Source: Candidatus Uhrbacteria bacterium RIFCSPLOWO2_01_FULL_47_25
Lineage (GTDB): Bacteria; Patescibacteriota; Patescibacteriia; GWA2-46-9
Reading direction: 5' to 3'
Assembly (NCBI GenBank): GCA_001791325.1
Contig: MGEK01000023.1
Location: forward strand, 4,405-68,404
Length of the DNA: 64,000 bases
A model generated the notes under the pieces. The model was not told where the DNA came from, searched no databases, and saw only the letters and a list, made by a program, of their open reading frames with translations. The position numbers were made by a program, and so were the translations under genes. This document shows, one piece after another, positions 7,373 through 60,150 of this stretch (position 1 is its first letter; each line of letters begins with the position of its first letter).

Positions 7373-7510
7373 ACCCCGTTAGAAGTCCTAAGAAGATAAA
7401 ATTCCTTTAAGAATTTTATCTTCTATGGCAGCAACGATGCTTAATAGATTCATAGACCGTATCATTGCCTAAGATACATTAATTATACTATGTCAGACTT
7501 CTAATGGGGT
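7373..7510. repeat. TIR element copy A (15-bp terminal inverted repeats CCCCGTTAGAAGTCC / GACTTCTAATGGGGT; internal hairpin AGAAGATAAAATTC-loop-GAATTTTATCTTCT)
   Basis: Seen directly; TIR ends 1 nt before the ATG of the sigma factor gene; distal TIR flanked by a 10-bp direct repeat AATTATACTA (7481-7490, 7511-7520). Confidence 0.8.
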
Positions 7511-9746: not shown

Positions 9747-10130
9747 ACTATAAATTTAAAGAATTAAATGAAGCCACTGGCTTCACCCCGCCAAGGGCGG
9801 GGTTTATTAAATCCATATCGCTTCATCCCTACGCTCACGCGCAGGATATTCGCGGGGATTTAATAAAATGGTACGACCTTTATAATGTTAATAACATATT
9901 TAATACTAAGGAAAAGTATACACGAGAGCCACTAATAGGGCAACACCCCCCGGACAGGACCAAATTCTAAGCTCTAAGTACGAATTTCTAAACAAATTCC
10001 AAGTCCCAAATTCTAATAACTCCAATAAGTTTATAATTTGTGATTTCGGATTTGTGATTTGCTTAGCCTGCCTGCCGCGGGCAGGTATTTAGAGATTAGG
10101 CATTCGAAATTACAACAAAAACCAACATTC

Positions 10131-10817: not shown

Positions 10818-10872
10818 AAGCTATAAGCCGTAAAACAATAAAATCAAAAAGGCAAAAGTACAAGTTCAAGGT

Positions 10873-10932
10873 CAAAAGCTTTTGAATTTTGCATTGTAAT
10901 TTTGACTTCTAACTTTTGAATTTTGACTTCAA
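10873..10932. repeat. 60-bp repeat copy 1 (CAAAAGCTTTTGAATTTTGCATTGTAATTTTGACTTCTAACTTTTGAATTTTGACTTCAA)
   Basis: Near-identical to 11448-11507; overlaps the stop codon and last 7 codons of gene 10909..11403. Confidence 0.85.
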
Positions 10933-11403: not shown

Positions 11404-11447
11404 GACAATAATTCAAAAGTTAAAATGTAAAAGGCAAAAGTGTAAGT

Positions 11448-11507
11448 CAAAAGCTTTTAAATTTTGCATTGTAATTTTGACTTTTAACTTTTGAATTCTG
11501 ATTTCAA
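11448..11507. repeat. 60-bp repeat copy 2
   Basis: 55/60 identity with 10873-10932; overlaps the stop codon and last 7 codons of trxB. Confidence 0.85.
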
Positions 11508-13556: not shown

Positions 13557-15150
13557 ATACTATCAAAAACGATTTGAATGGCGCTTCCAATAAATAGTCA
13601 AATAAATACAGAAAGACATTGAATTTAGCTGAAGTTAAAGAAACAAACTGGCCGACTCGCAAGATAGGTAAAGAGAAAAAATTAATGAGCACCAATAAAA
13701 TATTTTCCCGCTGACTGCTCACAAAAAGATCGCGCACTGGTTGACGAATACGAATGGCAAAAAAAGAAACAACGGTTAAAAAGAGCAGAAAAAATCCTGT
13801 GCCAATAAAGGTGAAGTGTAAACGATGCAGGATTAAAATAATTCCGCCAAAAGTTATGGTGAAGGTAAGAAGATAAAAAAGCGAAAATACACTAACCAAA
13901 AAAACTGACGAACCGACCGGATTTTTAACTTTAGAAAATACCCGGCGTTCTCCTCCATAAAGCAGCTCTATCATTACCCTAACAACTTCTCGGGTATTTG
14001 TCCGACCCGGAAAACGGGTGGTCGCCGTCAATAAAAACATCAAGCTAGGAGGAAAAACCGTGTTAATAACTATGGGGGTAGCAAGCACGGCGCCATAGAT
14101 AAATTGTTCGGCCGGGGCTTCGGCTATTAAAGCCAAGATAATCTTGGTTAAAAAAATATATACGGTAGCACGAACGGCGCTACGGTACAAACGACGACGG
14201 GTGCCGCGATAATATTTTTGACAAATCTCCTCTAGCTCGGATCGTAATCTTGGTTCGTTCAATAAAAGCTCACGAGCTCCGCCGGGGTATTTCATGGCGA
14301 TATCTTTCAAGGCATGAAAAACAATGACGCGAGACTTTAAGGCGCGATATAGTTTTAAACCAGCGGGATGCCGCAAGGCCTGTTCAGTATTGAAATACTG
14401 CCGAGAAAGCGATGGCCATAAAGACGACATATCCTCGGCGCGTCGTGAGCGCCAATCCGGCATTTGCTTTAATAATAAAAAAAAGTGTAGTGTCTGAGGA
14501 TCAAAAGCAAACAAAGCACGATAACAAGCGATAAACACCTGTCTTTCTTTCTCTTCCGAACCCAACGACCAATCCATAAGCGGGTCGTCTTTAATGACGT
14601 AACTAACCATAAGATTCACTAGAGCCTGATGCTCTGGAGAAGGAGCGAGTTCGTCATCAAGCTCTGCCGAAAGTAAACCCAACAACCAAGCCTTAGCTGT
14701 CTTTTTTTCGTTCGATTTATCCTGCTCCATGAGATTGAAAAGAACAGCATAACGATCAAAGATGGTCTGCACTTTGGGCACAATCGCTTCGGGAATGGAA
14801 TCATTCCTTAAGTATTGCGCCTGCACTAGTTCAATTAAAAAAGGACGAGCGAACTCATGCCAGTCGCCACGGTCTTCAAGCTGACGTCTCACGATCCGTT
14901 CAATGGCATGCCGTCTTAATAGGTGCTCTTCACGATAATCCAGGCTATAACGTAATTTTTCATATAATGCCGCCGCTCCAGAAATCACGCTGGAAACGTG
15001 AATGTAAGAACCTTCCAATGTTGAGACTGAAGACTGTTTCTGCGAGAGATTGGCTAAAAACGCCTGAACCGGCGGCGTCAGTGTTTTGACTGAAATCGTT
15101 GCCTCTTTGGCACCTAAATTCTTTGGTTTGCTCAATGCGGAGATGGGCAT
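13507..15150 (-). CDS. hypothetical protein with soluble N-terminal half and polytopic C-terminal membrane half
   Basis: Long ORF; ATG lies 1 nt after TIR element B; 50-nt overlap with the downstream gene. Confidence 0.5.
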   Translation of the reverse strand: MPISALSKPKNLGAKEATISVKTLTPPVQAFLANLSQKQSSVSTLEGSYIHVSSVISGAAALYEKLRYSLDYREEHLLRRHAIERIVRRQLEDRGDWHEFARPFLIELVQAQYLRNDSIPEAIVPKVQTIFDRYAVLFNLMEQDKSNEKKTAKAWLLGLLSAELDDELAPSPEHQALVNLMVSYVIKDDPLMDWSLGSEEKERQVFIACYRALFAFDPQTLHFFLLLKQMPDWRSRRAEDMSSLWPSLSRQYFNTEQALRHPAGLKLYRALKSRVIVFHALKDIAMKYPGGARELLLNEPRLRSELEEICQKYYRGTRRRLYRSAVRATVYIFLTKIILALIAEAPAEQFIYGAVLATPIVINTVFPPSLMFLLTATTRFPGRTNTREVVRVMIELLYGGERRVFSKVKNPVGSSVFLVSVFSLFYLLTFTITFGGIILILHRLHFTFIGTGFFLLFLTVVSFFAIRIRQPVRDLFVSSQRENILLVLINFFSLPILRVGQFVSLTSAKFNVFLYLFDYLLEAPFKSFLIVFEDVLGFFREQREDIV

Positions 15151-15151
15151 A

Positions 15152-15308
15152 CCCCGTTAGAAGTCCCGCCCATTCGGCGGGCAGGCCTCAGAAGACAAAA
15201 TTCTCTTAAGAATTTTGTCTTCTATGGTAACTAGAATATTTAGTTGGTTGGTAGATTGTATCATATATAAAAGATTGGATATTGTGCTAAGTCAGACTTC
15301 TAACGGGG
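15152..15308. repeat. TIR element copy B (CCCCGTTAGAAGTCC ... GACTTCTAACGGGG)
   Basis: Perfect 14/15-bp TIRs; internal hairpin AGAAGACAAAATTC-loop-GAATTTTGTCTTCT; ends 1 nt before the ATG of gene 13507..15150. Confidence 0.85.
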
Positions 15309-15490
15309 CACAACATTGATGGAATATAGAATGTGGAATATGGAATATAGGTATTAATTGTTGGGGAATTCTGATTTTCATAAACTTGATTCTAAATTCT
15401 ATATTCAATATTCTGCATACAACACATAGTATATCATACCTTCACGCTTTCATTATACATCATAACATGGTCAAGACACTAAATGATTGA

Positions 15491-18722: not shown

Positions 18723-18729
18723 AGCATTG

Positions 18730-18832
18730 GAAGAATATAAAATATGGAATATTGAATATATTACTTGCTATGTAGAATCAATCGTTGTAGCTCACGTTCT
18801 ATATTCCAAATTCTATATTCAATATTCTAATC
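18730..18832. repeat. TATATTC(A/C)A(T/A)ATTCT repeat cluster upstream of mreC (inverted and direct copies)
   Basis: GGAATATTGAATATA at 18745-18759 and TTCTATATTCCAAATTCTATATTCAATATTCT at 18797-18828; same motif at 15321-15351, 15393-15414 and 52411-52446. Confidence 0.7.
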
Positions 18833-18991: not shown

Positions 18992-20035
18992 TTCCTGCGC
19001 GGATGACACCACAATCTCCTTCAAAAGTTCGGGATTGTCTAACAGCAAGCCGGTGCCGCGCACTACGCAAGTCAGAGGATCGTCAGCTACCCGCACCGGT
19101 ATTTGCGTCGCCTCGGCAATGGCTACACTGATATTTCTCAAAAGTGCGCTACCGCCGGTAAGCACGATACCGCGTTCATAAATATCAGCCACTAATTCAG
19201 GTGGGGTTATTTCCAAAATATCCTTAATATGATCAATGATGGTTTTTACTGACCTAGTCATAGATTGACGAATTTGAGTATCATTCACAACCACTTCTTT
19301 GGGCAGTCCGGAAACAAGATCGCGCCCGCGCATAGTGGTTTCCAGTGGCGTCGCCAAAGGACTAGCTGAACCAATCTGAATTTTAATATCTTCGGCCACT
19401 CTTTCTCCCAAAAGCAAATTAAACTGTTCCCGAGCGTATTGCACGATATTCTGATTAAGTTCATCTCCCGCCAAACGCAAAGATTTGGCTGTCACAATAC
19501 CGCCCAAAGAAATAACAGCAATCTCGGTCGTGCCTCCGCCAATATCCACAACCATGCTGGCCGTCGGTTCCTGCACTGGCAAGCGCGTGCCAATGGCGGC
19601 AGCCATTGGTTCTTCAATCAAATAGACGGAGCGCGCCCCGGCTGAGCGCACCACATCTTCAACGGCTTTCTTTTCCACTTCCGTTATTTCTGTGGGGATC
19701 GCAATAATCACGCGCGGACGCGGCAAAAGAGTAAATGCCTCGCGATGCACCCGATCAATAAAATAGGTGAGCATCTTCTCGGTCACTTCAAAATCGGAAA
19801 TAATGCCATCTACCAGAGGACGCGTAGCCACAATATGGGGCGGTGTCTTGCCAATCATGCGCTCGGCTTCACGCCCCACGGCCACAATCTGATCCGTGCG
19901 GGTATTCACGGCCACGACTGATGGCTCGTTGATAACAATACCGCGATCTTTGACATAAATCAAAGTATTCGCTGTCCCCAAGTCAACGCCAATATCGCGA
20001 GAAACGCGACCAAATATATTCTTTAACACACTCAT
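18983..20035 (-). CDS. mreB: rod shape-determining protein MreB
   Basis: Actin-fold motifs DLGTANT, VVDIGGGTTE; full length. Confidence 0.95.
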   Translation of the reverse strand: MSVLKNIFGRVSRDIGVDLGTANTLIYVKDRGIVINEPSVVAVNTRTDQIVAVGREAERMIGKTPPHIVATRPLVDGIISDFEVTEKMLTYFIDRVHREAFTLLPRPRVIIAIPTEITEVEKKAVEDVVRSAGARSVYLIEEPMAAAIGTRLPVQEPTASMVVDIGGGTTEIAVISLGGIVTAKSLRLAGDELNQNIVQYAREQFNLLLGERVAEDIKIQIGSASPLATPLETTMRGRDLVSGLPKEVVVNDTQIRQSMTRSVKTIIDHIKDILEITPPELVADIYERGIVLTGGSALLRNISVAIAEATQIPVRVADDPLTCVVRGTGLLLDNPELLKEIVVSSAQEPR

Positions 20036-20086
20036 GATATATCAAGTCAAAAGTTATAATTCAAAAATAAAAATTACAATTCAAAA

Positions 20087-21367
20087 TTATAAAGTCTTGC
20101 CTATCGGCTGATTGATAAAAGTTTTATATTTGTCAATTTCGCCGATAATATCCTTGACCACTCTCGCGCGCGACGACATACGTTCTTTTAATTCATAAAC
20201 ACCATCCTTTACTGTTTTGTCGCTCACTACCAATCTTAAAGGAAGACCAATTAAATCCGCGTCTTTAAGTTTCACTCCGGCTGACGCATCGCGATCATCA
20301 TAAAGTACATCCAGACCAAGTTTGTTAATTTTTTCATAAAGCGCGTTGGCCTGTTTGACAATTTCTGGCTCGTCGCTAAGGCGCACTAAATGAACTTGAT
20401 AAGGCGCAACAGCAGACGGCCAGCAAATGCCTTCTTTGTCATGATGTACCTCTACAATCGTCCCCGTGACGCGCCCAAGCCCAATGCCGTAACATCCCAT
20501 TAGCACTGGCCTATCCTCCCCTTTCTCGTCTTTGTATGTCAGCTTGAATGGCTCGGAAAATTTTGTTTTCAATGGAAAAATGTTGCCAACCTCAATGGCC
20601 TTCTCAATCTTGAGATCATCTTTGGGGCGACCGCACTCTGGACAAACTTTTTGTTCATCAATAATCTCCCCGTTAACCGCCACACCGCAATGTTCGCACA
20701 AATATATAGTATCTTCCCCAGCTGACGTCAATGTCTGAAACTCGTGCGAATATTTGGAAAAAGTACCGCCTGAAGCAAAGGTAAAAACTGTGCGTTCACC
20801 AATGCCCGTGCGGTTAAAAATTTTTTTGTAAGCATCAGCGACTTTTTTGTAATAAGCATTAAAATCTTCCTCGTTAACATGAAAAGAATATAAATCTTTC
20901 ATCATAAACTCCCGACCGCGCAAAAGTCCGGATTTAGCCCGAAGCTCCATTCTAAATTTTGTCTGAAACTGATAAAGAGCCAACGGCAAATCTCGGTAAG
21001 ACGAAATATCGCGCTTGGCCAACGGCGTGATTATTTCTTCGTGCGTCGCGCCCAGAGCAAAGTCACGTCCGCTGGAATCGGTGAGCTTGTATAAATCATC
21101 AACCGTTTCCCAACGACCGGTTTGTTCCCAGGCCTCTCTCGGGTGAAGCGCTGGCAATAAAAGCTCCTGCCCGCCAATGACGTTTATCTCTTCGCGAATA
21201 ATATTTTCTATTTTATTGAGAACTCGGAGTCCCAGGGGCAAAAATGAATAAACCCCGGCCATTAATTTCTCCACATAACCAGCCTGAACCAACAGGCGAG
21301 CATTTATGCTCTGTTCGTCTTTAGGCGGGTCGCGAAGAGTTTTACCGAATAGTTTGGATTGAAACAT
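20087..21367 (-). CDS. proS: proline--tRNA ligase (archaeal/eukaryotic type, no editing domain)
   Basis: Class II aaRS motifs, C-terminal zinc-binding CEHCG...CPECG typical of ProRS type II. Confidence 0.85.
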   Translation of the reverse strand: MFQSKLFGKTLRDPPKDEQSINARLLVQAGYVEKLMAGVYSFLPLGLRVLNKIENIIREEINVIGGQELLLPALHPREAWEQTGRWETVDDLYKLTDSSGRDFALGATHEEIITPLAKRDISSYRDLPLALYQFQTKFRMELRAKSGLLRGREFMMKDLYSFHVNEEDFNAYYKKVADAYKKIFNRTGIGERTVFTFASGGTFSKYSHEFQTLTSAGEDTIYLCEHCGVAVNGEIIDEQKVCPECGRPKDDLKIEKAIEVGNIFPLKTKFSEPFKLTYKDEKGEDRPVLMGCYGIGLGRVTGTIVEVHHDKEGICWPSAVAPYQVHLVRLSDEPEIVKQANALYEKINKLGLDVLYDDRDASAGVKLKDADLIGLPLRLVVSDKTVKDGVYELKERMSSRARVVKDIIGEIDKYKTFINQPIGKTL

Positions 21368-24500: not shown

Positions 24501-24612
24501 GATATCCCATCGTCCCCGTGGCAACCTGCCTGCCGGTAGGCAGGGACACTTGGGGTATCCGAGAAAGGTGCGGGATAAACGACTTTAATTTTGACGAGTG
24601 GACGAAAAACAT
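21559..24612 (-). CDS. large (about 1000 aa) secreted/surface protein, beta-rich, N-terminal membrane anchor; true start probably the internal Met at ~24510
   Basis: Single N-terminal TM, Thr/Ser/Gly/Val-rich repetitive beta-like sequence; first 35 codons of the ORF-table model overlap a GC-rich repeat. Confidence 0.6.
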   Translation of the reverse strand: MFFVHSSKLKSFIPHLSRIPQVSLPTGRQVATGTMGYQINHFHPATAGWKGAGFIITASVLAVALFIFGTTASGVRAASLLDRAAVRLLQVKGSPSIYAVVRGHKYLFLSPTSFGSYSYAGGKIETISSEALDKLPNVRLIKSSLGSRVYLLDKASSQKFWFPTEVSFINSGEKWENIFEISNSDARMYPNTSLARAPSDQKVFYLDLEKQTRAPIPSPEIFVAKGFSWSKILTVPAAALEGYAITSPLELTTPVSPPAGGASLTISAGSDIAATIFPAGTIRNRVWTINLSAVDALVRLNSLKITKRGFMSDAEIDGVALLDEKGFLLTNPQRFADGVASFTLADPVVVVPGQPRILTVMVNFASTTAVSQKTFYLTIIDASSVLASAVVRGSFPLASATHTVMPATAIIGQLSVDSVVIASSPRNIVIGTADQILNRWRFSVAGGAEDVLLERLIFTQLGNGQVSDFGQYELVDDANKVIAKDATIRGRSILIDFGKNSYRLRRGESKEIALRADIVGGSNNTSQFIIQNDYDIFAKGATNGYALAARAGPADGNFPVGGRSNGAFNAIFIEPGKVLVDLNAQSPSGAITRGARDAVLAAFDIKALGQALLFEKIGVKILTAAPYTPLSESVTIKIKGGSAIGSVSAASVMNQVQTIYLSNPPTIQSGKVITIEIVGNVDAAASTADRYQVELSNASFVVPGTADRLTFSAAVTAAVRDVQEITLRVRHDPNFKPSSSAPAGVKNFKIGRYLFQPSAGERVRVEQVTLSAVGTTPVRFSDGYSNLKLGGKGIVAPNGNPHIFALATEINAGSESGFDLVIDTTTAVDGQTIQFTVQDVMATGTVSKTKVPVQLENSITPAIIFKKSKVSFGLNNNFTGGQTAKTASTIIGSFTMTVDSAEDVAVPELTVTETSSSSGLSVTRGYKNLRLTDASNGRAVSRTVASPVGGVGGNLLTGGPTLKPGQALTFNVVVDATGAATGDSIQSILSLVKAEGRTSRLAPTVNGLSVIGQIVVF

Positions 24613-25799: not shown

Positions 25800-25932
25800 G
25801 GATATAAAATTCAAAAAGCAAAAGTCAAAATGGCAAGTCAAAAGTTCTAAGTTCTATGTTCTGGGTTCAAAGCACCACATATATATTAAAGATTATATAT
25901 TGGAGACTAGAGACTGTGGTAGCAGTGGCAGA

Positions 25933-29532: not shown

Positions 29533-29670
29533 CCCCGTTAGAAGTCCGACTTAATATCACCTTAAGAATCTCTTATCTATACCACAATCCATGAATACAC
29601 TAAACACCATAATTACCACCGCAGATAAAATTCTCTTAAGAATTTTATCTGCCAAGGACTTCTAACGGGG
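29533..29670. repeat. TIR element copy C, filling the entire archease-rtcB intergenic space
   Basis: Left TIR starts the nt after the archease TAA; right TIR GGACTTCTAACGGGG ends 1 nt before the rtcB ATG; internal hairpin GCAGATAAAATTC-loop-GAATTTTATCTGC. Confidence 0.85.
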
Positions 29671-29671
29671 T

Positions 29672-31117
29672 ATGATCCCTAAACAATCCTTAGTAAAAAT
29701 TCACGACTGGCTTTGGGAAATTCCTAAAAGTTATCGCCACGACATGCGCGTGCCGGCGCGGGTTTGGACTTCGGAAAAAATGCTTGAAGACATATTGGGC
29801 GATAGATCGCTTGAACAAGCGGTTAACGTGACCACCCTGCCTGGCATTGCCAAAGCCGCTTTAGTGATGCCAGACGTGCACGAAGGGTATGGTTTTCCCA
29901 TTGGCGGCGTCGCCGCCATGCGCTGGCCAGATGGTGTAATTTCTCCGGGCGGCATTGGTTATGACATTAATTGCGGCGTGCGCCTTTTGAAATCAGAGCT
30001 GTCGTTTAATGATGTGGCCGCTCATCTTTCTTCCTTAGCTCGTGAGCTTTATCATGAAGTGCCTTCAGGCGTTGGTCGCGGCGGCACTATTAGACTCAAT
30101 ATCATTGAACTTGATCGCGTGCTCAAAGATGGGGTTGGCTGGGCTATCAAACATGGCTACGGCGAGGATCAAGACGCGCGCTACTTGGAATCATCAGGCG
30201 CGCTCGCTGATGCCGATCCATCTGCTGTTTCTGAACACGCTAAAAACCGCGGCCGCGATCAACTGGGCACCATGGGCGCGGGCAATCATTTTGTGGAAGT
30301 GGACAAGGTAACACAGATATTTGATTCGTCCACGGCAAAAACCTTCGGCTTATGGCAAAATCAAATTGTAATTCTCATTCACTGCGGCTCTCGGGGTCTG
30401 GGTCATCAAGTGGCCACCGACTATATTCGCCTAATGCAGAAAATAATGCCGCGCTACCACATTAGTTTGCCCGACAGAGAACTTGCCTGCACTCCCCTTT
30501 CTTCTCTGGAAGGGAAAAATTATTTTAACGCCATGGCCGCGGCCGCTAATTTTGCCTGGGCCAATCGCCAACTAATCACGCATGAGATCAGGAATAGCTG
30601 GCGCAAAGAATTTGGCGCAAGCGCCAGCCAATTATCCATTCTTTATGATGTCGCCCATAATATAGCCAAAATTGAAGAACACATTATTGACGATAAGCCG
30701 CAAAAACTTATAATGCATCGCAAAGGCGCGACGCGCGCCTTTGGGCCCGGGCATCCAGAAGTGATTGAAGAATATCGCGCCGTGGGACAGCCAGTAATAA
30801 TCCCGGGCTCTATGGGTACGGCTTCTTATGTTCTCGCGGGCACCAAGCAAGCCATGAAAGAATCATTTGGCTCTTCCTGCCACGGCGCCGGTCGCCGTAT
30901 GTCGCGCCATGCGGCCAAACGAGCCGTGCAAGGAGGGGCTCTCCGAGACCAACTGGCGAAACAGGGCATCCATATTCAAACCGGCTCGCTCTCTGGTTTA
31001 GCCGAAGAAGCGCCACTGGCTTATAAAAATATTGACGATGTGGTGGACGTAGTATCCAAAGCCGGCCTTGCCAAAAAAGTAGCCCGCCTAGAGCCGCTGG
31101 TGGTAGTCAAAGGTTAA
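29672..31117 (+). CDS. rtcB: RNA-splicing ligase RtcB
   Basis: Conserved RtcB motifs (GNHF, SCHGAGR, metal-binding His/Cys); 481 aa. Confidence 0.95.
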   Translation: MIPKQSLVKIHDWLWEIPKSYRHDMRVPARVWTSEKMLEDILGDRSLEQAVNVTTLPGIAKAALVMPDVHEGYGFPIGGVAAMRWPDGVISPGGIGYDINCGVRLLKSELSFNDVAAHLSSLARELYHEVPSGVGRGGTIRLNIIELDRVLKDGVGWAIKHGYGEDQDARYLESSGALADADPSAVSEHAKNRGRDQLGTMGAGNHFVEVDKVTQIFDSSTAKTFGLWQNQIVILIHCGSRGLGHQVATDYIRLMQKIMPRYHISLPDRELACTPLSSLEGKNYFNAMAAAANFAWANRQLITHEIRNSWRKEFGASASQLSILYDVAHNIAKIEEHIIDDKPQKLIMHRKGATRAFGPGHPEVIEEYRAVGQPVIIPGSMGTASYVLAGTKQAMKESFGSSCHGAGRRMSRHAAKRAVQGGALRDQLAKQGIHIQTGSLSGLAEEAPLAYKNIDDVVDVVSKAGLAKKVARLEPLVVVKG

Positions 31118-31119
31118 AA

Positions 31120-31410
31120 ATATTTACCCTCCTCCGCGAGCGAAAGCGAGCGGAGAAAGCCCCGCCTGTTAAGGCGGGGATGAATGAGGGTACCCTGCGT
31201 AGTCCCGCCGAGCGGGACGAAGCAGGGTACGCTTCGGAGGGTTCCGCTGCTACTCTGCGAAGTAGCTTCGCTACGTAGCACGAGCCGACGAAGCGTGTGG
31301 AGAGGAGCCACGGCTGTAAAGCCGTGGGGCTCCACAAAAAGAAACGGAGGCGGCCTGACAGATATCAAACCGCCCCTAACATGACCATCGTCTTCCTGAA
31401 CGCTTAGCGC
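31120..31410. ncRNA. GC-rich, densely structured non-coding region downstream of rtcB (candidate structured RNA or cluster of palindromic repeat modules)
   Basis: About 62% GC versus AT-rich surroundings; nested perfect hairpins (CCCCGCC-TGTTAA-GGCGGGG; GGTACCCTGC...GTCCCGCCGAGCGGGAC...GCAGGGTAC; GAGCCACGGCT-GTAAA-GCCGTGGGGCTC); no RNase P, SRP, tmRNA or tRNA consensus found. Confidence 0.3.
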
Positions 31411-31411
31411 C

Positions 31412-31654
31412 TCACTGAGAGGCGCTATGTTTCTGTTCATAGGCGCAAAGCGCTAACTTGACGCCGACCAGAACGAATTTGGTAGCCAGCTCATACGACT
31501 CTTCTGGCGCGAGGCCGTCGCCAATCATGCACTCTGCTAACTTCCTCCTTTCTCTCTCAAGGTGAACCTTAGTAACGGCTCCTACCCCGCGCACCATGAT
31601 GGCCTCATTTTCACGAAACTCCTGACTGTCAACAACTAAAACCGACGTGCTCAT
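31412..31654 (-). CDS. hypothetical small protein (80 aa)
   Basis: Canonical SD GAAAGAAGGAGG 5 nt upstream of the ATG; preceded by a 9-bp stem hairpin in the leader. Confidence 0.55.
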   Translation of the reverse strand: MSTSVLVVDSQEFRENEAIMVRGVGAVTKVHLERERRKLAECMIGDGLAPEESYELATKFVLVGVKLALCAYEQKHSASQ

Positions 31655-31761
31655 CGCGCCCTCCTTCTTTCAAACTTTGGGAGAAGCGACCCGCAACGTT
31701 TCGCTTCTCTGGTTTCCATAGTTCACTGTTGCGGACGGGTATTTATAGCACAGGTTATGTA

Positions 31762-41063: not shown

Positions 41064-41129
41064 TTAATTTAAGGTTAGCTGAAAATAAAATAATATAACT
41101 AACTACGTGCTCAACTTCGTTCCTATATA

Positions 41130-41183
41130 CCCCGCTAGAAGTCCTCGGAAGATAAAATTCTTGAGGGGATTTTATCTTCGGCG
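41130..41183. repeat. truncated TIR element D (one terminus CCCCGCTAGAAGTCC plus canonical internal hairpin)
   Basis: CGGAAGATAAAAT-loop-ATTTTATCTTCG adjacent to the TIR; no partner TIR found; 66 nt upstream of gene 40509..41063. Confidence 0.6.
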
Positions 41184-41247
41184 GTAATTATAGTAATGAA
41201 CCTCCGCGCAGCAAGACCGCGGGGAATAATCAAGTTTAAAATCCCGA

Positions 41248-42372: not shown

Positions 42373-42422
42373 ACTAATAAATCTCCAAAATTCCTTATTA
42401 TTGTTTTTTGTTTTCCGATAAT

Positions 42423-42515
42423 GGAGCTTCCCTGCTTTACCCCGCCGCGGCGGGGCGGCGGGATGGCATCTTGACGGACGGGGTTTTGTGGAGCGCTTGC
42501 CTGCCGGCAGGCAAG
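42423..42515. repeat. GC-rich hairpin repeat module upstream of cfa (…CTTTACCCCGCCGCGGCGGGGCGG… then CTTGCCTGCCGGCAGGCAAG)
   Basis: Core shared with 165-222 and 60002-60150; a second perfect 8-bp hairpin follows. Confidence 0.7.
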
Positions 42516-42547
42516 ATGGTTTTCTAAAATTTAATCTTCAACGCCAA

Positions 42548-51805: not shown

Positions 51806-51961
51806 AACTCAATAATTTCTAAATCCTAAGCTCTAATTTTTAAACAAATCACAATATCTAAATCACAAATAACAAACAGTTTGGAACATTGGGATTTCGT
51901 GCTTAGTTATTGTTTAGAGATTAGAAATTAGATATTAGAGATTACCATGGTGGGGTGTTAT

Positions 51962-52438
51962 TTAATCGCTTCTTTCTTCCCAAGAATTAATGGTGACAAT
52001 ATTTAAACTGCCTGGAATCTGTGCGACCACGGTTATAACGGCCTGAATTTTTTTATAATAACTGCCGCTCTGCCCAAGTATTGTCAGGCGGCGCTGGTTG
52101 CCCCCTAAATCCACAACACTTATTGTACACGAACCATTGACAACTGGAAAACTCGGGGATCCTGTATAGCCCGCATCTAAACGCAAACGCCGCATAGCCT
52201 CTTCCAGACACCCATCCGCGACGGAAAATGCTTCACCGCCCTTTTGATATGTATAACCAAGCTCAAGCTCGCCCAAGCCAAGCAGTGAAGCGCTAGTAGC
52301 CATAGTTAAAGCAACCACGCCAATGATTAAAACCGTTAAGAGGGCAGAGAAGCCAACAGGGTGTTCAGGCGTTAGCTTATTAGCTTGTAGCTTTTTAGAC
52401 CCTGACCGATTTTCTATATTCAATATTCTATATTCCAT
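51962..52438 (-). CDS. pseudopilin-like protein
   Basis: PVG/FSALLTVLIIGVVAL prepilin-like hydrophobic N-terminus; N-terminal codons of the model lie in a TATATTC repeat. Confidence 0.5.
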   Translation of the reverse strand: MEYRILNIENRSGSKKLQANKLTPEHPVGFSALLTVLIIGVVALTMATSASLLGLGELELGYTYQKGGEAFSVADGCLEEAMRRLRLDAGYTGSPSFPVVNGSCTISVVDLGGNQRRLTILGQSGSYYKKIQAVITVVAQIPGSLNIVTINSWEERSD

Positions 52439-52444
52439 ATTCTT

Positions 52445-53044
52445 TCACTGCCTAACACTCACGGCCATACGCAGACTTTGTGAATAATTATATTCTACAT
52501 CATTGGAATCATTTTTGTAGGCCACGGTAATTTCCACTCCGATATTTTCGCGCGCATTACCGCCGCCGTAATTACGAAACACCAAATTAGTAGCTTCAAC
52601 CCTACTGCCGGTAATAGACACGGGCTGACTGGCGCCTTCGCTAATTTGAATCGCGCCGTTTGCGTCTACATCAATCACTGTTGGATTTTTTAGAACATCC
52701 GCCATGACGAGCGACAACCTGCCTGGACTGCTGTCAAAAACCGAATCACCGGCATTAACTCCCGTGGCCGCCTTAATGCGCTGGCTAATAATCTCAACAG
52801 CTATACGAGCATTGGCCTGCACTTCCTGCGCCACATAAGTTTTATTGCGCACCCCGGCCACAGACAAACTATATGAGATAAAAGTCACGGCCACGCCGCC
52901 AATAACGACAATATAAATGAGCAGCTCTATGAGAGTGAAGGCTCTAGGCATTAGCTTATTAGCTTGCTCGCCCCGTGCAGTCCCGCCTGGCGGGACGAAG
53001 CGGGGTAGCTTTTTAGATAAAAATTTAAATGTTTTATCAATCAT
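52445..53044 (-). CDS. type IV pilin-like protein
   Basis: AFTLIELLIYIVVIG prepilin N-terminus preceded by a 40-aa extension containing a GC-rich hairpin insertion. Confidence 0.6.
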   Translation of the reverse strand: MIDKTFKFLSKKLPRFVPPGGTARGEQANKLMPRAFTLIELLIYIVVIGGVAVTFISYSLSVAGVRNKTYVAQEVQANARIAVEIISQRIKAATGVNAGDSVFDSSPGRLSLVMADVLKNPTVIDVDANGAIQISEGASQPVSITGSRVEATNLVFRNYGGGNARENIGVEITVAYKNDSNDVEYNYSQSLRMAVSVRQ

Positions 53045-53085
53045 AAATGCAAAATGTAAAAAGCTAAGAAGCTAATGCCTAATTC

Positions 53086-55194
53086 CTATCTATAGTTGAT
53101 CCTTAATTCATTCAAGATCGGCGTGGCCGTACCGTCGCCGATCAGTTCCACCCGATACTGCGCCCAGCGATTGTTATTAAGGGCGATTGGCGCTAAGGCT
53201 CCGCGAGGAATCGTAAAATATGTGCCTGCTCCAGTAGCGCCGTACCATGACGCGGTTGAGAGTGCCGCTAAATCCAAAGTGGTACGAATCTGAAGCTTGA
53301 CAGCACAGCCAACACAACCTCCTGGTGTTTCATCCCACTCAACAATTTGCCAAACTCTATTAACGCTAGCGTCAAAAGCTGATGAGCGTAACCAGCCGCT
53401 TGAGGCGAATGGTCCTCCGGAACCCTGAACCTCGCAATCAACAATTACCTCATCAAGAATCACCTGTTGTGTTCCACTGCCAACAAGAAACGCGCGAAAC
53501 TTCAGCCCGTCAGCGGTCACTGGAAATTCGGAAATATTACTATTGACCACCACGGCGGTATTATAATTTGTTGAACCTGCTACTACCCAGCCACTATTCC
53601 AATATTGCCACGATGCACCATTATCCTTGGAAAGCTGGTAATAAATCTGACCACCGTTTTTTGTAGCTACTTCATTGAAGCTTGTCCAACTATCTATCGG
53701 TGAAGGCTGATAGGCCGCATTTGGAGTGACCCATGGACCATCATTGGCATACGGCTGACCATGCGGCGAGTTGGGCGGTGTAAAAGGAGCAATCCAGCGA
53801 GCAACGCTGGAAACTCGCACTTCATCAAGGCGTCCATAAAAACTTGAGGTACCACCTTCGCTTAACCGAAACGGCGCATTGCCATTTTGAATACCAGCGC
53901 TATAGGAGACACGGGCTGCTGCAGACACCCCTCCGACAAACAAATATAAAAACGATCCATCATACACAGCGGCTACATGGCGCCACTGGTTCAATGGAAT
54001 GATCCCGGCACTGGATGTGATAGACCCCAGATTCAAGCCATTCCTAACCTCAAAACTTAATGAACCATTAATATTGACATACAAACGATAAGATCTGCTT
54101 GCCCCACTGGTCCACTTAGTAACAATAAAATCGCTTCCCGAAGAATAGGCCGTCTTGTTCACCCACGCATCAATAGTTAATGGCCCCATAATATCAAGAC
54201 CTTGCTGTGAGTTGTCTAAAATAGATCCAAAATCCGCACTGCTTTTAAATCGCACGGCGGTACCGAATTTGCCAGCTTGCCCATACAGCGGAGTGCCGTT
54301 CACTGTCAGATTGTTGTTATGGCCGGAGGCATCAATAAAATTTCCGCTCGCCTCGTCTAAGTGCCAAAGACCACGCGTGGTGGCTGGATTAATCAACTGC
54401 CCACCCATATCTTTAAGACGGGCTACGTTGTTATTGCCAGCGTCAACCTCAATCTTAGCAGGATCGCTCAAAGTGTAATCTGAAGCAGTGCTAAAATCCC
54501 AAGTTTTTGATGGACAAACTGGCGGTGGCCCAATGGACTTCAGCTTTACTTCACCGGCTGTTGATACGTCAATATTACCATCGTCAGCTTCATAACGCCT
54601 TGAGTCAGACCATATTGCCTGACCTGATCCGCCTGACCAATCGGTCTGGGTCCACTCGCGCGAATCCCAATTTGTAAGATAAGACGTGCGCTCAACATAA
54701 TTAGCCGCGCCTTGGCCGGGTGACCAATTAACTTTGACCTTAACCTGTTTGCTATGCACATCAATATATGAACTAGGGCAATCAGCAATGTCATTGCTCG
54801 CGTTTCGGCAAACATCGCTAAAAGTAATAGTGCGTGTGTACTTATTTTCTATTAACTCCGACGAAGCCGAACTCAACTCCCACTGGCCAGCATTGACAGA
54901 AACTTTGGCTGGAGAGTATATCAATTTATTCCAAGCCCGATTGGCAATAGCTTTAACCGCTTCTATGCCCTCCTCCGCCAGCGCTCCGGCCTGCGTCTGC
55001 TCGCCGCCGCGGCTTAAGCCCATAAAACTTCCAGCCGCTAAAGTTACCACAGCCGTGGCGAGTAGCGCGAAAATACCCAGAGCCACCACTACCTCTAAAA
55101 GACTCTGACCGCGATTGTCAAAAATTAGTTTATTGGGCATTGGCTGATTAGACCACGCGCAGAAATTGTGATAACGCCTTCGTTTATTCAACAT
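53086..55194 (-). CDS. large (about 700 aa) minor pilin with concanavalin/LamG-like domain (putative tip adhesin)
   Basis: Pseudopilin signal NRG/QSLLEVVVALGIFALLA; large beta-rich C-terminal region. Confidence 0.6.
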   Translation of the reverse strand: MLNKRRRYHNFCAWSNQPMPNKLIFDNRGQSLLEVVVALGIFALLATAVVTLAAGSFMGLSRGGEQTQAGALAEEGIEAVKAIANRAWNKLIYSPAKVSVNAGQWELSSASSELIENKYTRTITFSDVCRNASNDIADCPSSYIDVHSKQVKVKVNWSPGQGAANYVERTSYLTNWDSREWTQTDWSGGSGQAIWSDSRRYEADDGNIDVSTAGEVKLKSIGPPPVCPSKTWDFSTASDYTLSDPAKIEVDAGNNNVARLKDMGGQLINPATTRGLWHLDEASGNFIDASGHNNNLTVNGTPLYGQAGKFGTAVRFKSSADFGSILDNSQQGLDIMGPLTIDAWVNKTAYSSGSDFIVTKWTSGASRSYRLYVNINGSLSFEVRNGLNLGSITSSAGIIPLNQWRHVAAVYDGSFLYLFVGGVSAAARVSYSAGIQNGNAPFRLSEGGTSSFYGRLDEVRVSSVARWIAPFTPPNSPHGQPYANDGPWVTPNAAYQPSPIDSWTSFNEVATKNGGQIYYQLSKDNGASWQYWNSGWVVAGSTNYNTAVVVNSNISEFPVTADGLKFRAFLVGSGTQQVILDEVIVDCEVQGSGGPFASSGWLRSSAFDASVNRVWQIVEWDETPGGCVGCAVKLQIRTTLDLAALSTASWYGATGAGTYFTIPRGALAPIALNNNRWAQYRVELIGDGTATPILNELRINYR

Positions 55195-56844: not shown

Positions 56845-57261
56845 TTATGAACGCGCCGCGCCAATGTCCTCCTGTTTCTTTTGTTTCATAGCCAAATATT
56901 TACGTACTTCCACGCCAAGTTTTGTGATAGGAAAATCGGTTTTGACTAAATAACCGACGGCTCCGAGGTCCAAACCTGTTTTGATATCTGAATCCTGACC
57001 TAAATTGGTTAAAATAACTACCGGAATATTCTTGGTATGAGCGTGAAGTTTCATTTCACTTAAAATATCAAAGCCGTTTTTGTGCGGCAGAACGATATCA
57101 AGAATAACTAAATCCGGCTTCTCGTTCATAACCTTATTCAATCCTTCATCACCGGAAATCGCCATGCTAACCTCAAACCCCTCGCGTCGCAACTGGTCAG
57201 TATATAATTTATTCAGGAATTTATCGTCTTCAATAACTAAAATTTTGGCCGTATTTTCCAT
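56845..57261 (-). CDS. single-domain response regulator (CheY-like receiver)
   Basis: Receiver-domain signature (KILVIEDD... conserved Asp and Lys); ATG 1 nt after TIR element E. Confidence 0.85.
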   Translation of the reverse strand: MENTAKILVIEDDKFLNKLYTDQLRREGFEVSMAISGDEGLNKVMNEKPDLVILDIVLPHKNGFDILSEMKLHAHTKNIPVVILTNLGQDSDIKTGLDLGAVGYLVKTDFPITKLGVEVRKYLAMKQKKQEDIGAARS

Positions 57262-57262
57262 A

Positions 57263-57389
57263 CCCCATTAGAAGGCCTTCCCAGCCCCGCCTAGCGGGAC
57301 TGATAAGATAAGCGGTTGAATGAATAATAATAGTTACGTTGGCGGTTTATAGAGAGTGGATTAATCATAAAGACGGCCTTCTAACGGGG
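57263..57389. repeat. TIR element copy E with co-varied termini (CCCCATTAGAAGGCC ... GGCCTTCTAACGGGG), filling the HK-RR intergenic space
   Basis: Termini changed AAGTCC to AAGGCC on both arms, keeping complementarity; ends 1 nt before the response-regulator ATG and starts 7 nt after the kinase stop. Confidence 0.8.
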
Positions 57390-57396
57390 CATATCC

Positions 57397-60001: not shown

Positions 60002-60150
60002 GTGAAGCTCCACGACTTTACCCCGCACCGCGGGGTGGCCTCCCCAAAAATTTGGGGTGGAGCGAAACCCCGCACCGTCCGCCCGGGGCGGACTGGTGCG
60101 TTGGGTAAAACTCCATGGACTTAATCCCTGCCCGACGGCTAACACGACCC
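60002..60150. repeat. GC-rich hairpin repeat module (GTGAAGCTCC...CTTTACCCCGC-ACCGCGGGGTGG...) upstream of pilB
   Basis: Shares a roughly 45-nt core with 165-222 and 42423-42484. Confidence 0.7.

Follow-up and report, generated by a model that had tools for sequence, protein, structure and literature searches.

A 39-nt nested hairpin at a pilin locus of Candidatus Uhrbacteria is probably one copy of a REP-like palindromic element with relatives in many phyla

At the 5′ end of a pilin gene in the window, i.e. the whole 64-kb stretch of Candidatus Uhrbacteria DNA analysed here, a GC-rich module stands within an AT-rich sequence that recurs uninterrupted at the next pilin-like gene. The locus raises the question whether this module is an inserted element, an RNA signal or a part of the pilin itself.

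52967..53005, minus strand: 39-nt GC-rich nested-hairpin module, family member W, defined as an indel compared to the paralogous site
52980..52996, no strand assigned: inner 7-bp stem and 3-nt loop of module W, GTCCCGC-CTG-GCGGGAC (pattern match, fold and family covariation)
53006..53017, minus strand: AT-rich flank 5′ of the module in coding-strand sense, TCTAAAAAGCTA (reading and alignment)
52946..52966, minus strand: AT-rich flank 3′ of the module in coding-strand sense, CAAGCTAATAAGCTAATGCCT (reading and alignment)
52367..52399, minus strand: paralogous site that has the flanks but no insert ("empty"), 5′ end of the next PilX-like (pilin-like) gene
53010..53052, minus strand: AT-rich block of 43 nt directly upstream of the module, 42/43 identical to the ortholog in another Uhrbacteria species
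53061..53082, minus strand: 5′ arm of a long AT-rich inverted repeat with its partner at 52944-52965 (RNA fold)

On the minus strand, TCTAAAAAGCTA followed by CAAGCTAATAAGCTAA[C/T]GCCT is found both at 52399..52367 and at 53017..52946, the latter being split by 39 nt. Direct reading and alignment agree that 53017..52946 equals 52399..52367 plus 39 extra bases, with 12 + 20 nt of homologous flanks and one mismatch. The placement of the indel is uncertain by 1 nt because of a shared base, and the junction of the empty site lies between 52387 and 52388. The flank motif is confined to this pilin operon. With the minus-strand sequence CCCCG-CTTCG-TCCCGCC-AG-GCGGGA-CTGCA-CGGGG-CGAG the module folds such that an outer stem of 5 bp leads through a 4x4 internal loop to an inner stem of 7 bp, which is capped by a loop of 3 nt. 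The original prediction, a GC-rich hairpin within a hairpin that had been inserted into repeated AT-rich sequence at a pilin gene, could be confirmed for the indel, for the homology of the flanks and for the nested fold. The proposed 40-mer is a real module of 39 nt, to which one flank base had been added. The pair of sites regarded as the states before and after an insertion has homologous flanks, and the edges of the indel are those of a family unit (see below), but the two sites are paralogous and do not represent one locus.

A search for the inner-hairpin pattern gave six strand-matches at three sites of the window, compared to 0.04 expected. With a covariance model of the family exactly two full copies were found in the 64 kb (46 and 49 bits, both copies having been part of the model). 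Module W, as one of these model copies, is matched at 52962-53009 on the minus strand with 46.3 bits.

31184..31231, minus strand: second full family member A, 49.1 bits (copy A was in the model), fold z = −6.2
57283..57300, no strand assigned: partial relative, inner hairpin only, GCCCCGC-CTA-GCGGGAC, 16.5 bits, E = 0.012

Copy A combines the canonical core CTTCGTCCCGCTCGGCGGGACTACG with an outer stem of 9 bp. Downstream of rtcB and of a small minus-strand ORF (31412..31654), it lies within 644 nt of GC-rich sequence between convergent genes; this region is missing in relatives with the same gene order and represents a lineage-specific gain. Modules W and A are 84% identical over 37 nt (31193-31229), with a compensatory T-A vs C-G difference in the outer stem, so that copy A is a member of the family as predicted, although the term "nearly identical" was slightly generous. 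The partial relative is nested in a 139-nt inverted repeat (57257-57395, −51.7 kcal/mol, z = −3.9), the 3′ arm of which holds the start codon of a response-regulator gene. A tRNA/tmRNA search of the window gave no hits.

The sequence is by no means restricted to these sites. In species-representative genomes a pattern scan revealed the module at at least 119 loci, compared to about two chance matches expected. Among the matches listed, the 25-nt core occurs at 46 loci of Verrucomicrobiota/PVC, 28 of Patescibacteria, 16 of Desulfobacterota and the "delta" groups, 13 of Gammaproteobacteria and five of Bacteroidota, as well as in Myxococcota, Bdellovibrionota, Acidobacteriota and others, at least 10 phyla in all. 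The host loci of the listed copies span 30 to 73% GC. In 122 copies the conserved unit extends from −5 to about +34 around the core CTTCG-TCCCGC-NNN-GCGGGA-CTACG, and no conserved information was found in these copies beyond −5 or +35. The edges obtained independently from the 122 copies coincide with the edges of the 39-nt indel at the pilin gene. The module is a discrete unit and a member of a family with a covarying structure. In this family the outer stem has 5–6 bp and frequently a single bulged base. It encloses a 3x3 internal loop that is conserved (C-TTC-G / C-TAC-G) and a G...C-closed inner hairpin, most often TCCCGC-NNN-GCGGGA, and a CA(A/G)G(C/T) tail follows. In some variants the inner hairpin is swapped and the surrounding frame is kept. 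The inner-stem pair at columns 16-30 covaries (UA 93, CG 21, UG 4, CA 3; Fisher p = 1e-16), and in the outer stem 5.82 of 7 pairs are formed compared to 4.81 ± 0.06 with shuffled partners. The conserved mismatches differ by strand, being Y-Y on one and G-A on the other.

Most copies are intergenic (88/122), and copies were observed in every context type and in both orientations, divergent spacers included; some abut tRNA genes. Of the two strands of the element, the one with CTTCG coincides with the G-rich strand in 53 loci vs 26 (p = 0.003), and within open frames the sense strand is preferred by 28:6. About 25 additional copies outside the seed set were detected in 695 kb of family loci, corresponding to roughly one per 28 kb. 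Copies within one genome have identical extended flanks and form genome-specific subfamilies, a sign that they proliferated within genomes. No gene family was enriched near the copies when 936 ORFs were compared all against all. A YchF cluster among the neighbours turned out to be a coincidence; the other YchF copies lack the insert. A viral origin was likewise discarded, with two matches only in IMG/VR.

Insertion polymorphism of related hairpin modules was found in conserved genes. In YchF of a Roizmanbacteria MAG the module is in frame and adds 14 aa relative to PDB 1jal. The rtcB gene of a close relative (L139) contains a clean in-frame insert of 96 nt (32 aa), which is absent from the window as well as from L138 and L140; this variant has no GTAG at all. 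In three Verrucomicrobia a module lies in frame in an M20-like peptidase, as judged by translation only. The copies in YchF and the peptidase are translated in a common F-[VA]-P...G-[TA] frame. In the two empty/filled comparisons (C)AAGC follows the insert, a hint of a target, and no sequence is duplicated; a CA[AG]G tail occurs in 59/121 copies vs 7/121 controls.

At the pilin locus itself the module must be old, since another Uhrbacteria species carries one at the same site. The comparison of orthologous pilin loci proposed along with the original prediction yielded this second filled site, but no empty allele: a flank-anchored metagenome scan returned filled alleles and AT-rich chance matches only. 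The two species differ at 12/42 positions of the module and at 2/66 of the flanks, a contrast that simple vertical inheritance does not predict. The AT-rich block at 53010..53052 is a candidate promoter or leader element, for which a sigma-70 scan called no promoter; consensus terminator and promoter scans gave no call at the site of module W. In the RNA fold the AT block and the module are both enclosed by the inverted repeat 53061..53082/52944-52965, which also sequesters the AUG. With −61.3 kcal/mol and z = −7.2 the fold of 53090..52935 (minus strand) was not equalled by any of 200 shuffles.

The module comprises 13 codons and lies in frame within the annotated 199-aa ORF 52445..53044, upstream of AFTLIELL, as originally described, but the N-terminal extension that contains it is probably not translated. 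The 67 pilin homologues are mostly 167-176 aa long and start 3-9 residues before G/FTLIE. A probable start codon, ATG 52951..52949, falls within the CAAGCTAATAAGCTAATGCCT flank, and the short ORF from 52951, MPRA/FTLIELL, has the leader of a type IV prepilin, i.e. short, positively charged and with G/A before FTLIE. This leader and the homologue lengths argue for a position of the module outside the protein, most likely in the 5′ leader. Alternatively, the long ORF could be real and encode a pilin with a 35-aa leader, MIDKTFKFLSKKL-PRFVPPGGTARGE-QANKLMPRA/FTLIELL, in which the module would be a tolerated in-frame insertion similar to those of Rickettsia palindromic elements (RPE) in genes. We consider this improbable. 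Admittedly, the frame is open from the ATG at 53044 through the module in both species, the insert measuring 39 or 42 nt, and the two species share MIDKTFKFLSKK unchanged, the sole nucleotide difference there being synonymous. The empty-site sequence is part of the sole canonical-start ORF of the PilX-like gene, as ...SKKLQANKLTPEHPVG/FSALL; this neighbour has to translate AAGCTAA-type sequence because it offers no later start codon, which counts for the long ORF. The L005 orthologue needs a long leader too, and the common frame of the YchF and peptidase examples points in the same direction. These observations are opposed by the leaders of 3-9 residues in most of the homologues and by the ATG found exactly there in both species. 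Moreover, only six of the 13 module-encoded residues are conserved whereas the base pairing is kept, the conservation of the AT block reaches upstream of the ATG at 53044, and neither ATG is preceded by a Shine-Dalgarno sequence.

Two further explanations consider the module as a signal in RNA. It might be a functional structured motif, i.e. a cis hairpin to which a conserved factor binds, for example an RNA-binding protein or a double-strand RNase. Such a motif would act in mRNA processing, stability or translation and recur as something useful and not as something mobile; at the pilin locus it would help to fold the intercistronic leader that hides the start codon. The conserved bases and closing pairs of the internal loop around an inner hairpin of varying length and sequence, the covariation of both stems and the sense-strand bias are consistent with such a motif, as are the copies that abut tRNA genes. 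The module was also kept at the orthologous pilin site of the second species with a compensatory T-A to C-G change, the whole leader forms a single stem-loop (z = −7.2) whose stem contains the AUG, and a similar architecture is found at 57257-57395. However, Rfam 15 gave no match for the whole window at the gathering threshold, and for both module regions nothing meaningful at E up to 10 (for copy A, HgcC with 20 bits vs 50 needed and anti-hemB with 22 vs 49.5). Copies in both orientations and in every context, including divergent spacers, are not expected of such a motif, and within YchF, rtcB and the peptidase a processing or termination signal would do harm. A wobble signature specific to RNA is missing in the covarying pair, U-G being no more frequent (4) than C-A (3). 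The loop on the usually transcribed strand is pyrimidine-rich (UUC/UAC) and does not correspond to a known RNA module, and the genome-specific subfamilies with identical long flanks resemble proliferation. Overall we regard an RNA motif as unlikely, though less so than the long ORF. It is hardly credible that the hairpin is simply a terminator or attenuator between cistrons of the pilus operon and that its likeness to the other copies is a convergence among GC-rich hairpins in AT-rich spacers. The hairpin does lie between two cistrons, the plus strand continues with TAGCTTTTTAG after it, and the weak Rfam similarities near copy A belong to terminator-containing RNAs. The coding strand, in contrast, continues with CGAGCAAGCUAAUAAG, which is not a U-tract, and the terminator scan gave no call. 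Convergence cannot explain why at least 119 unrelated loci share an identical core of 25 nt together with covarying outer stems, and copies occur inside genes.

We conclude that the module is probably one copy of a non-autonomous, REP-like palindromic insertion element of about 40 nt, in support of the miniature palindromic insertion proposed originally. An enzyme acting in trans, most plausibly an HUH/Y1 transposase of the RAYT/IS200 type, would copy or move the unit in the form of single-stranded hairpin DNA, and the unit would land beside a short AAGC-like sequence without target duplication. It may persist where little harm is done, mostly between genes; with few stop codons and a length divisible by three (39 or 42 nt), it could at times survive in frame inside genes as well. 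An ancestor of the two Uhrbacteria species would have gained the module between the conserved AT-rich leader block and the pilin start codon, where it is presumably transcribed within the intercistronic leader. Located at the inner base of the long AUG-occluding AT-rich stem, it may by now play a part in the folding, processing or stability of the mRNA. The low copy number, two in 64 kb, and the lack of recent mobility at the pilin locus speak against a REP-like element, and the sense-strand bias and conserved loop bases would also fit a function at the RNA level. The hairpin behaves like a small selfish element of this kind, and the cross-phylum family is apparently undescribed. Literature searches by exact sequence (11-mers of the element) revealed unrelated primers only; apart from the REP papers, the searches on palindromic elements of CPR or Verrucomicrobia turned up no specific match. 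A bolder and rather doubtful extension would be an unrecognised pan-bacterial class of hairpins of about 40 nt with a core near-identical from CPR to Verrucomicrobia, delta- and gammaproteobacteria. The core would have been preserved through recognition by one horizontally spreading single-strand DNA or RNA-templated machinery. Such elements would insert beside AAGC-like sites without duplication; their length of 39 or 42 nt would open essential genes to them, and host operons, the pilus operon among them, would have recruited copies into long AT-rich stems that gate start codons.

REP-type elements count as lineage-specific and as companions of the domesticated transposases of well-studied Proteobacteria. 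This picture would be extended by a REP-like hairpin core common to many phyla, among them the CPR with their tiny, transposase-poor genomes, and such a core raises the question of what mobilises the hairpin and how phylum boundaries are crossed. In practice, the modules distort gene calls, as seen in a false 31-aa N-terminal extension of the pilin and in spurious ORFs such as 31114..31440, and they add inserts of 13-32 residues to conserved proteins (YchF, RtcB) in metagenome-assembled genomes. They can also serve as easily scored insertion-polymorphism markers between close relatives. The strand-differing mismatches (Y-Y vs G-A) would permit tests of strand-specific hairpin recognition in a tractable system.

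Several known structures were compared with the element. An outer stem formed as an inverted target duplication was rejected because neither of its arms is present in the empty site. Integron attC sites, CRISPR repeats, K-turns, loop E and BHB introns were considered and dropped; the element is without a GTTRRRY box, its loops are variable, its internal loop is symmetric and the transcribed strand has no tandem G-A. With MITEs (Correia/NEMIS, ERIC, RUP) the element shares the character of small non-autonomous intergenic repeats that are co-transcribed with their neighbours as RNA hairpins able to affect them, and the 132-nt structure 53082..52944 with inverted arms of 19-22 bp has MITE-like dimensions. 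The 40-nt unit, however, has no terminal inverted repeats beyond its own stem and no target duplication, and the long AT-rich arms, which the other genomes do not share as a unit, consist of AAGCTAA repeats belonging to the operon itself. Yeast mitochondrial GC clusters and "byp" elements are likewise short GC-rich palindromic mobile modules in AT-rich sequence, some of them coding, but belong to a different domain of life and differ in sequence; byp is bypassed in translation, whereas the coding copies of the element are in frame and presumably translated.

The subterminal hairpins of IS200/IS605 and of their non-autonomous derivatives (PATEs) are, like the element, imperfect with conserved mismatches. 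Also similar to the element, they show no target-site duplication (in two empty/filled comparisons here), a short specific neighbour, (C)AAGC in our case, and an orientation bias relative to the G-rich strand; the target preference of the element is suggested by these two comparisons and a tail motif in 49% of the copies. In contrast to them, the element is a single 40-nt hairpin instead of two different ends around a body, and no tnpA or tnpB occurs near it. RPEs are also GC-richer palindromes that lie between genes as well as in frame in conserved genes, where they add a short peptide without destroying the protein, comparable to the 14 aa in YchF and the 32 aa in rtcB. With about 100-150 nt and an occurrence in Rickettsia only they differ from an element of about 40 nt in many phyla, and for RPEs a CGTC tag is reported (PMC3733652) instead of GTAG.

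A close similarity is found to REP/BIME sequences of the GTAG-tagged REP superfamily and their RAYTs (TnpA-REP Y1 transposases). According to PMC6006769 and PMC3733652, REPs carry GTAG (or GTGG) 0-2 nt 5′ of the hairpin foot and a loop of 2-5 nt. Some differences are evident. REPs are described as species-specific (PMC6006769), with sequences particular to a species or genus, whereas the 25-nt core of the element is common to at least 10 phyla. Its GTAG lies in the internal loop inside a covarying outer stem instead of at the outer foot or end, and it occurs mostly as singletons and not as inverted pairs (REPINs). A RAYT association was not observed: tblastn with four RAYT/TIRYT sequences (Y1 proteins of E. 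coli, Stenotrophomonas, Geobacter and Koribacter) gave RAYT-like genes in 3/119 8-kb loci, none of them element-flanked and none in the window. The text and the examined supplements of PMC3733652 contain neither the element sequence nor its encoded peptides (FVP..GTT, VVP..GTK and others). Both are short, GC-rich, imperfect palindromes, with a 7-bp inner stem, a 3-nt loop and about 40 nt for the element and a basal stem of about 6-20 bp and 20-40 nt for REPs. Both are mostly extragenic with a minority in ORFs and form genome-specific subfamilies; REPs occur in many copies per genome, and the element may do so too. GTAG-3 and GTAG-14 likewise have nested stems that are separated by unpaired bases (PMC3733652). 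On its complementary strand the family core reads C-GTAG-TCCCGC-NNN-GCGGGA-C, i.e. on this one strand GTAG is followed immediately by a stem of 6-7 bp and its loop of 3 nt. The core search pattern allowed A or G at the tag position; GTAG is found in 111/122 copies (91%) and GCAG in the remainder. In the window, copy A carries GTAG and the module at the pilin gene GCAG.

The intact and the split flank described in the original prediction were aligned, and the two loci agree. On the minus strand, which carries nearly all genes of the window, positions 52399..52367 read TCTAAAAAGCTA|CAAGCTAATAAGCTAACGCCT without interruption and positions 53017..52946 read TCTAAAAAGCTA[CCCCGCTTCGTCCCGCCAGGCGGGACTGCACGGGGCGAG]CAAGCTAATAAGCTAATGCCT, the bracketed part being the extra piece. 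Its length is 39 nt, i.e. 13 codons, instead of the 40 nt first proposed, with the placement ambiguous by one base. Folding gave the expected hairpin within a hairpin, in which a 4x4 internal loop separates an outer stem of 5 bp from an inner stem of 7 bp that is capped by a loop of 3 nt. Since the flank motif AAGCTAA-N-AAGCTAA has exactly four matches in 64 kb and all of them fall within the pilus operon, the flanks are paralogous and not alike by chance. The features concerned are:

52967-53005, minus strand: the 39-nt module (copy W), in front of the pilin motif AFTLIELL
31184-31231: copy A, the second full family member, downstream of rtcB
52951..52949, minus strand: ATG, giving MPRA|FTLIELL
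53090..52935, minus strand: intercistronic region around the module
57257-57395: 139-nt inverted repeat between the histidine-kinase and response-regulator genes

We conclude that the module represents one copy of a discrete palindromic insertion element. The strongest support is that the edges of the conserved unit of its family and those of the indel in the window, determined independently, agree. The original interpretation was essentially right, except that the two sites are paralogous and hence no true before-and-after pair; the insertion is old. Copy A shares 84% identity with the module over 37 nt, and the outer stems of the two differ by a compensatory change, T-A versus C-G.

The comparison of orthologous pilin loci in relatives revealed a filled site in a second species, Uhrbacteria RIFCSPLOWO2_02_FULL_48_12 (L001-L003 and L135; L numbers denote loci from other genomes). 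There, a pilin of about 60% identity has a homologous module of 42 nt in precisely the position seen in the window, and the two align without a gap. Judged by sequence comparison, the insertion at this site is therefore ancient. The inner stem reads GCCCCGC/GCGGGGC compared to GTCCCGC/GCGGGAC in the window, again a compensatory change, and the outer stem is degraded. The module differs at 12/42 positions and its flanks far less (Fisher p = 1.8e-4), with one difference in 43 nt upstream (53010-53052) and one in 23 nt downstream; replacement by another family copy and template-switch mutation in the palindrome are both possibilities. L005, which is closer by coding sequence (67% aa identity), lacks the module as well as the conserved block. 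No empty orthologous allele was found, a flank-anchored metagenome scan returning filled alleles of the second species only. In two relatives, L004 (3680-4069) and L005 (952-1134), a four-helix-bundle gene (Pfam bAvd / 23S_rRNA_IVP) lies between the pilin and the PilX-like gene, with inverted AT-rich heptamer repeats on either side (TGAAGCA TGAATAA ... TTCATAC TTCATGA).

The genes at this locus form a type IV pilus operon in the order PilB, histidine kinase and response regulator, PilC, minor pilin, 702-aa LamG-bearing pilin-like protein, module-associated pilin, PilX-like, PilM-like fusion and major pilin. The 199-aa ORF and RtcB are each 100% identical to proteins of Candidatus Uhrbacteria bacterium RIFCSPLOWO2_12_FULL_46_10. 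As pilin homologues (n=67, mostly 167-176 aa) start 3-9 residues before G|FTLIE and an ATG is available at 52951..52949, the annotated 31-residue extension holding the module is probably an open-frame artefact. Alternatively, a long leader would be translated and the module would lie inside the protein. This reading is retained as a rival because both species keep the frame open, the neighboring PilX-like gene cannot avoid translating the same AAGCTAA-type sequence for want of a later start codon, and the L005 orthologue needs a long leader too. Most likely, the module is located in the 5' leader of the pilin, 15 nt upstream of the real start.

A role at the RNA level is also possible and would be compatible with the mobile-element reading. 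The intercistronic region is predicted to fold into a single stem-loop (-61.3 kcal/mol, z = -7.2), in which a 22-bp AT-rich stem is formed by inverted AAGCTAA repeats with the AUG inside and the module stacks at its inner base. The equivalent fold in RIFCSPLOWO2_02_FULL_48_12 is weak (z = -1.7). A structure comparable to the pilin leader is found at 57257-57395 (-51.7 kcal/mol, z = -3.9): its 19-bp arms (ATACCCCATTAGAAGGCC / GGCCTTCTAACGGGGCAT) contain the response-regulator start codon and enclose a partial hairpin (57283-57300) that shares the inner type of the module.

For the search for further copies, the pattern CTTYGYCCCGCNNNGCGGGRCTRCR was built from the three copies known then. With its 39 bits, the pattern should match about 2 times by chance in 596 Gb if base composition is even, and more often in GC-rich genomes. 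Scanning one genome per species revealed at least 119 loci. By record title, 46 belong to Verrucomicrobiota/PVC, 28 to Patescibacteria (CPR), 16 to Desulfobacterota or 'delta' groups, 13 to Gammaproteobacteria and 5 to Bacteroidota, the remainder to Myxococcota, Bdellovibrionota, Acidobacteriota, Fibrobacterota, Hydrogenedentes and Chloroflexota. Among the 119 matches listed, none is titled Firmicutes, Actinobacteria, Alphaproteobacteria, Cyanobacteria or Archaea. The GC content of the host loci ranges from 30 to 73%, and 2.9 million viral contigs contained only 2 matches. Five copies in a Pseudomonadales MAG and four in a Methylacidiphilum MAG share identical extended flanks, as expected from proliferation within the genome.

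Information content around the 25-nt core is nil beyond -6, increases steeply at -5 (CCC-N-C) and tapers off past about +34, which delimits a conserved unit of about 40 nt with the edges of the 39-nt indel. The only inner-stem pair left free by the pattern covaries (UA 93, CG 21, UG 4, CA 3; p = 1e-16). The outer stem varies among copies and yet is paired, with 5.82/7 pairs compared to 4.81 +/- 0.06 when partners are shuffled among copies; one bulged base is common in its 3' arm. This arm is followed by a CA[AG]G tail, then usually C or T, in 59/121 copies vs 7/121 control windows. A covariance model, trained on sequences that included both copies of the window, found exactly these two full copies there and about 25 additional ones in 695 kb of other loci. 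In the latter, outer stem, C-TTC-G / C-TAC-G loop and tail are preserved, and their inner hairpin is swapped for other G...C-closed hairpins of 3 to >9 bp. What stays invariant is therefore the structure's base, where a 3x3 loop lies between a C-G pair and a G-C pair. Within this loop the middle T-A is pairable and the outer bases are mismatched, as T-C and C-T on one strand and as G-A and A-G on its complement.

Open-frame analysis placed 88 of 122 copies in intergenic regions, with flanking genes co-directional in 19 and 10 cases and convergent more often than divergent (11 vs 8). Copies inside open frames favor the sense strand by 28:6, an orientation that is biased and not fixed. The CTTCG strand coincides with the G-rich strand in 53 loci vs 26 (p = 0.003), and both copies of the window follow the trend. 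For five or six of the 122 copies a tRNA gene is at most 40 nt away, and two copies abut a tRNA end; L008:7163-7284, L037:961-1073, L077:103-331, L088:4963-5096 and L102:5318-5466 represent such copies. Two of them begin at most 2 nt from the tRNA end, and one copy is located between two tRNAs.

The family also invades genes in frame. In YchF of a Roizmanbacteria MAG, a 14-residue insert (SPFAPQSGATEGQA) absent from the other YchF genes of the data set lies between the P-loop helix and switch I (compared to solved YchF 1jal), and three Verrucomicrobia have the insert NPAFVPQSGTAARQA in common, close to the N-terminus of an M20-type peptidase-like ORF, as judged by translation only. About 1.1 kb upstream of a peptidase gene with the in-frame element, a Verrucomicrobiae MAG (L124:579-2363) encodes a 594-aa helicase-like ORF with an embedded Y1/HUH transposase-like segment (…TTYFVTFRL…VVMPNHVHVLV…YIRQNPAKAGL…).

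Presence of the module also differs around rtcB. The relatives L138, L139 and L140 (RtcB 81-88% identical) have no module downstream of the gene; in L139 the same convergent glycosyltransferase-like gene follows after 117 nt, compared to 644 nt in the window. L139 contains a clean 96-nt (32-residue) in-frame insert within this conserved RNA ligase gene itself (1072-1167, Logan SRR22387949), absent from rtcB of the window, L138 and L140. Two GC-rich hairpin modules make up this insert; the second, CCCTC-CGAAG-CCCCAC-TTG-GTGGGG-CGAAG-GAGGG-C, has the outer frame and tail of the family with a GAA/GAA loop (CGAAG/CGAAG). In both empty/filled comparisons, pilin paralogues and rtcB, target duplication is absent and the insert ends with GC followed by AAGC. 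Together with the tail statistic, these two sequence comparisons hint at a target preference next to AAGC.

Further repeats were observed in the window:

7368-7423, 15146-15222, 29588-29674, 41124-41194, 57257-57277, minus strand: repeated cassette GAAGATAAAATTC...GAATTTTATCTTC-TTAGGACTTCTAACGGGGTATG
166-230, 42422-42490, 60003-60070: motif roughly 65 nt long, TGAAGCTCC-N-CGGCTTTACCCCGC-loop-GCGGGG...GGCAT...ACGGGGT; each copy lies in a spacer flanked by minus-strand genes, in one case upstream of pilB
10828-10932, 11410-11507, 15319-15428, 18724-18828, 20035-20094, 25801-25857, 51814-51938, 52398-52443: examples of AT-rich repeat spacers
10066-10086, 24525-24545, 42497-42517: separate GC hairpin (C)CTGCCTGCC-NNNN-GGCAGG(CAGG) in AT-rich spacers
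31118-31761: 644-nt convergent spacer, 52% GC, dense in GC hairpins

The final ATG of the cassette is the start codon of three genes (7372, 15150, 57261). The cassette may be a shared terminator and leader/translation-start module; it contains no obvious GGAGG. A consensus hairpin is predicted for the 65-nt motif from three copies, too few to judge, and Rfam holds no match to it. Many intergenic regions are AT-rich repeats with a period of 7-8 nt (GAATATN, TTAGAGA/TTAGAAA, AAAAGTC, AAGCTAA), frequently in inverted pairs that would give long AT-rich stems. Similar short-period repeats accompany the hairpin element in unrelated phyla, and in the Pseudomonadales MAG (L053, L094) CAAGCTACAAGCTA adjoins element copies and matches the flank in the window. 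The CAGGCAGG words of the separate GC hairpin resemble the CAGGC tail of the main family. Within the 644-nt spacer, 31412..31654 on the minus strand is a small ORF of 80 aa that has a strong AAGGAGGG ribosome-binding site. The reading frames 31114..31440 and 31107..31337 run through the hairpins and for this reason look spurious.

The conserved mismatches, unlike on the two strands, point towards recognition of a folded single strand, which the covarying stems, the lack of target duplication, the possible short target and the moderate strand bias would also suggest. The most economical mechanism, we infer, would be mobilization as single-stranded DNA by a Y1/HUH transposase supplied in trans. 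Genes similar to RAYT, the TnpA-REP Y1 transposase, occurred in 3/119 8-kb loci, where they are not flanked by the element, and the window has none; no gene family enriched near the copies was found. Rfam contains no family for the element, and neither its sequence nor the encoded peptides had a match in the part of the literature searched. The element belongs to a large, cross-phylum family of REP-like type, apparently undescribed so far, whose copies also enter essential genes in frame.

The element is filed as REP-like because its complementary strand, C-GTAG-TCCCGC-NNN-GCGGGA-CGAAG, with GTAG directly 5' of a GC-rich stem of 6-7 bp and a 3-nt loop, fits the published definition of repetitive extragenic palindromes, and because of their reported habits. 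By definition, a REP has a hairpin whose loop measures 2-5 nt and, 0-2 nt away from it, a GTAG/GTGG guide (PMC6006769); GTAG-tagged REPs are 20-40 bp long, their stems measuring 6-13 bp and their loops 2-3 nt (PMC3733652). Most REPs follow a gene and lie in a unidirectional or convergent spacer; some supply amino acids within ORFs, notably in the verrucomicrobium Opitutus terrae, and some are nested with unpaired bases between the stems (PMC6006769, PMC3733652). In contrast to REPs, which are described as species-specific, the core of this element is common to several phyla, its GTAG is enclosed by an outer stem, its copies are mostly singletons and one variant lacks GTAG. The proposed recognition of a folded single strand is similar to that of IS200/IS605 ends, REP/RAYT and attC sites, and the behavior inside genes resembles that of the Rickettsia palindromic elements.
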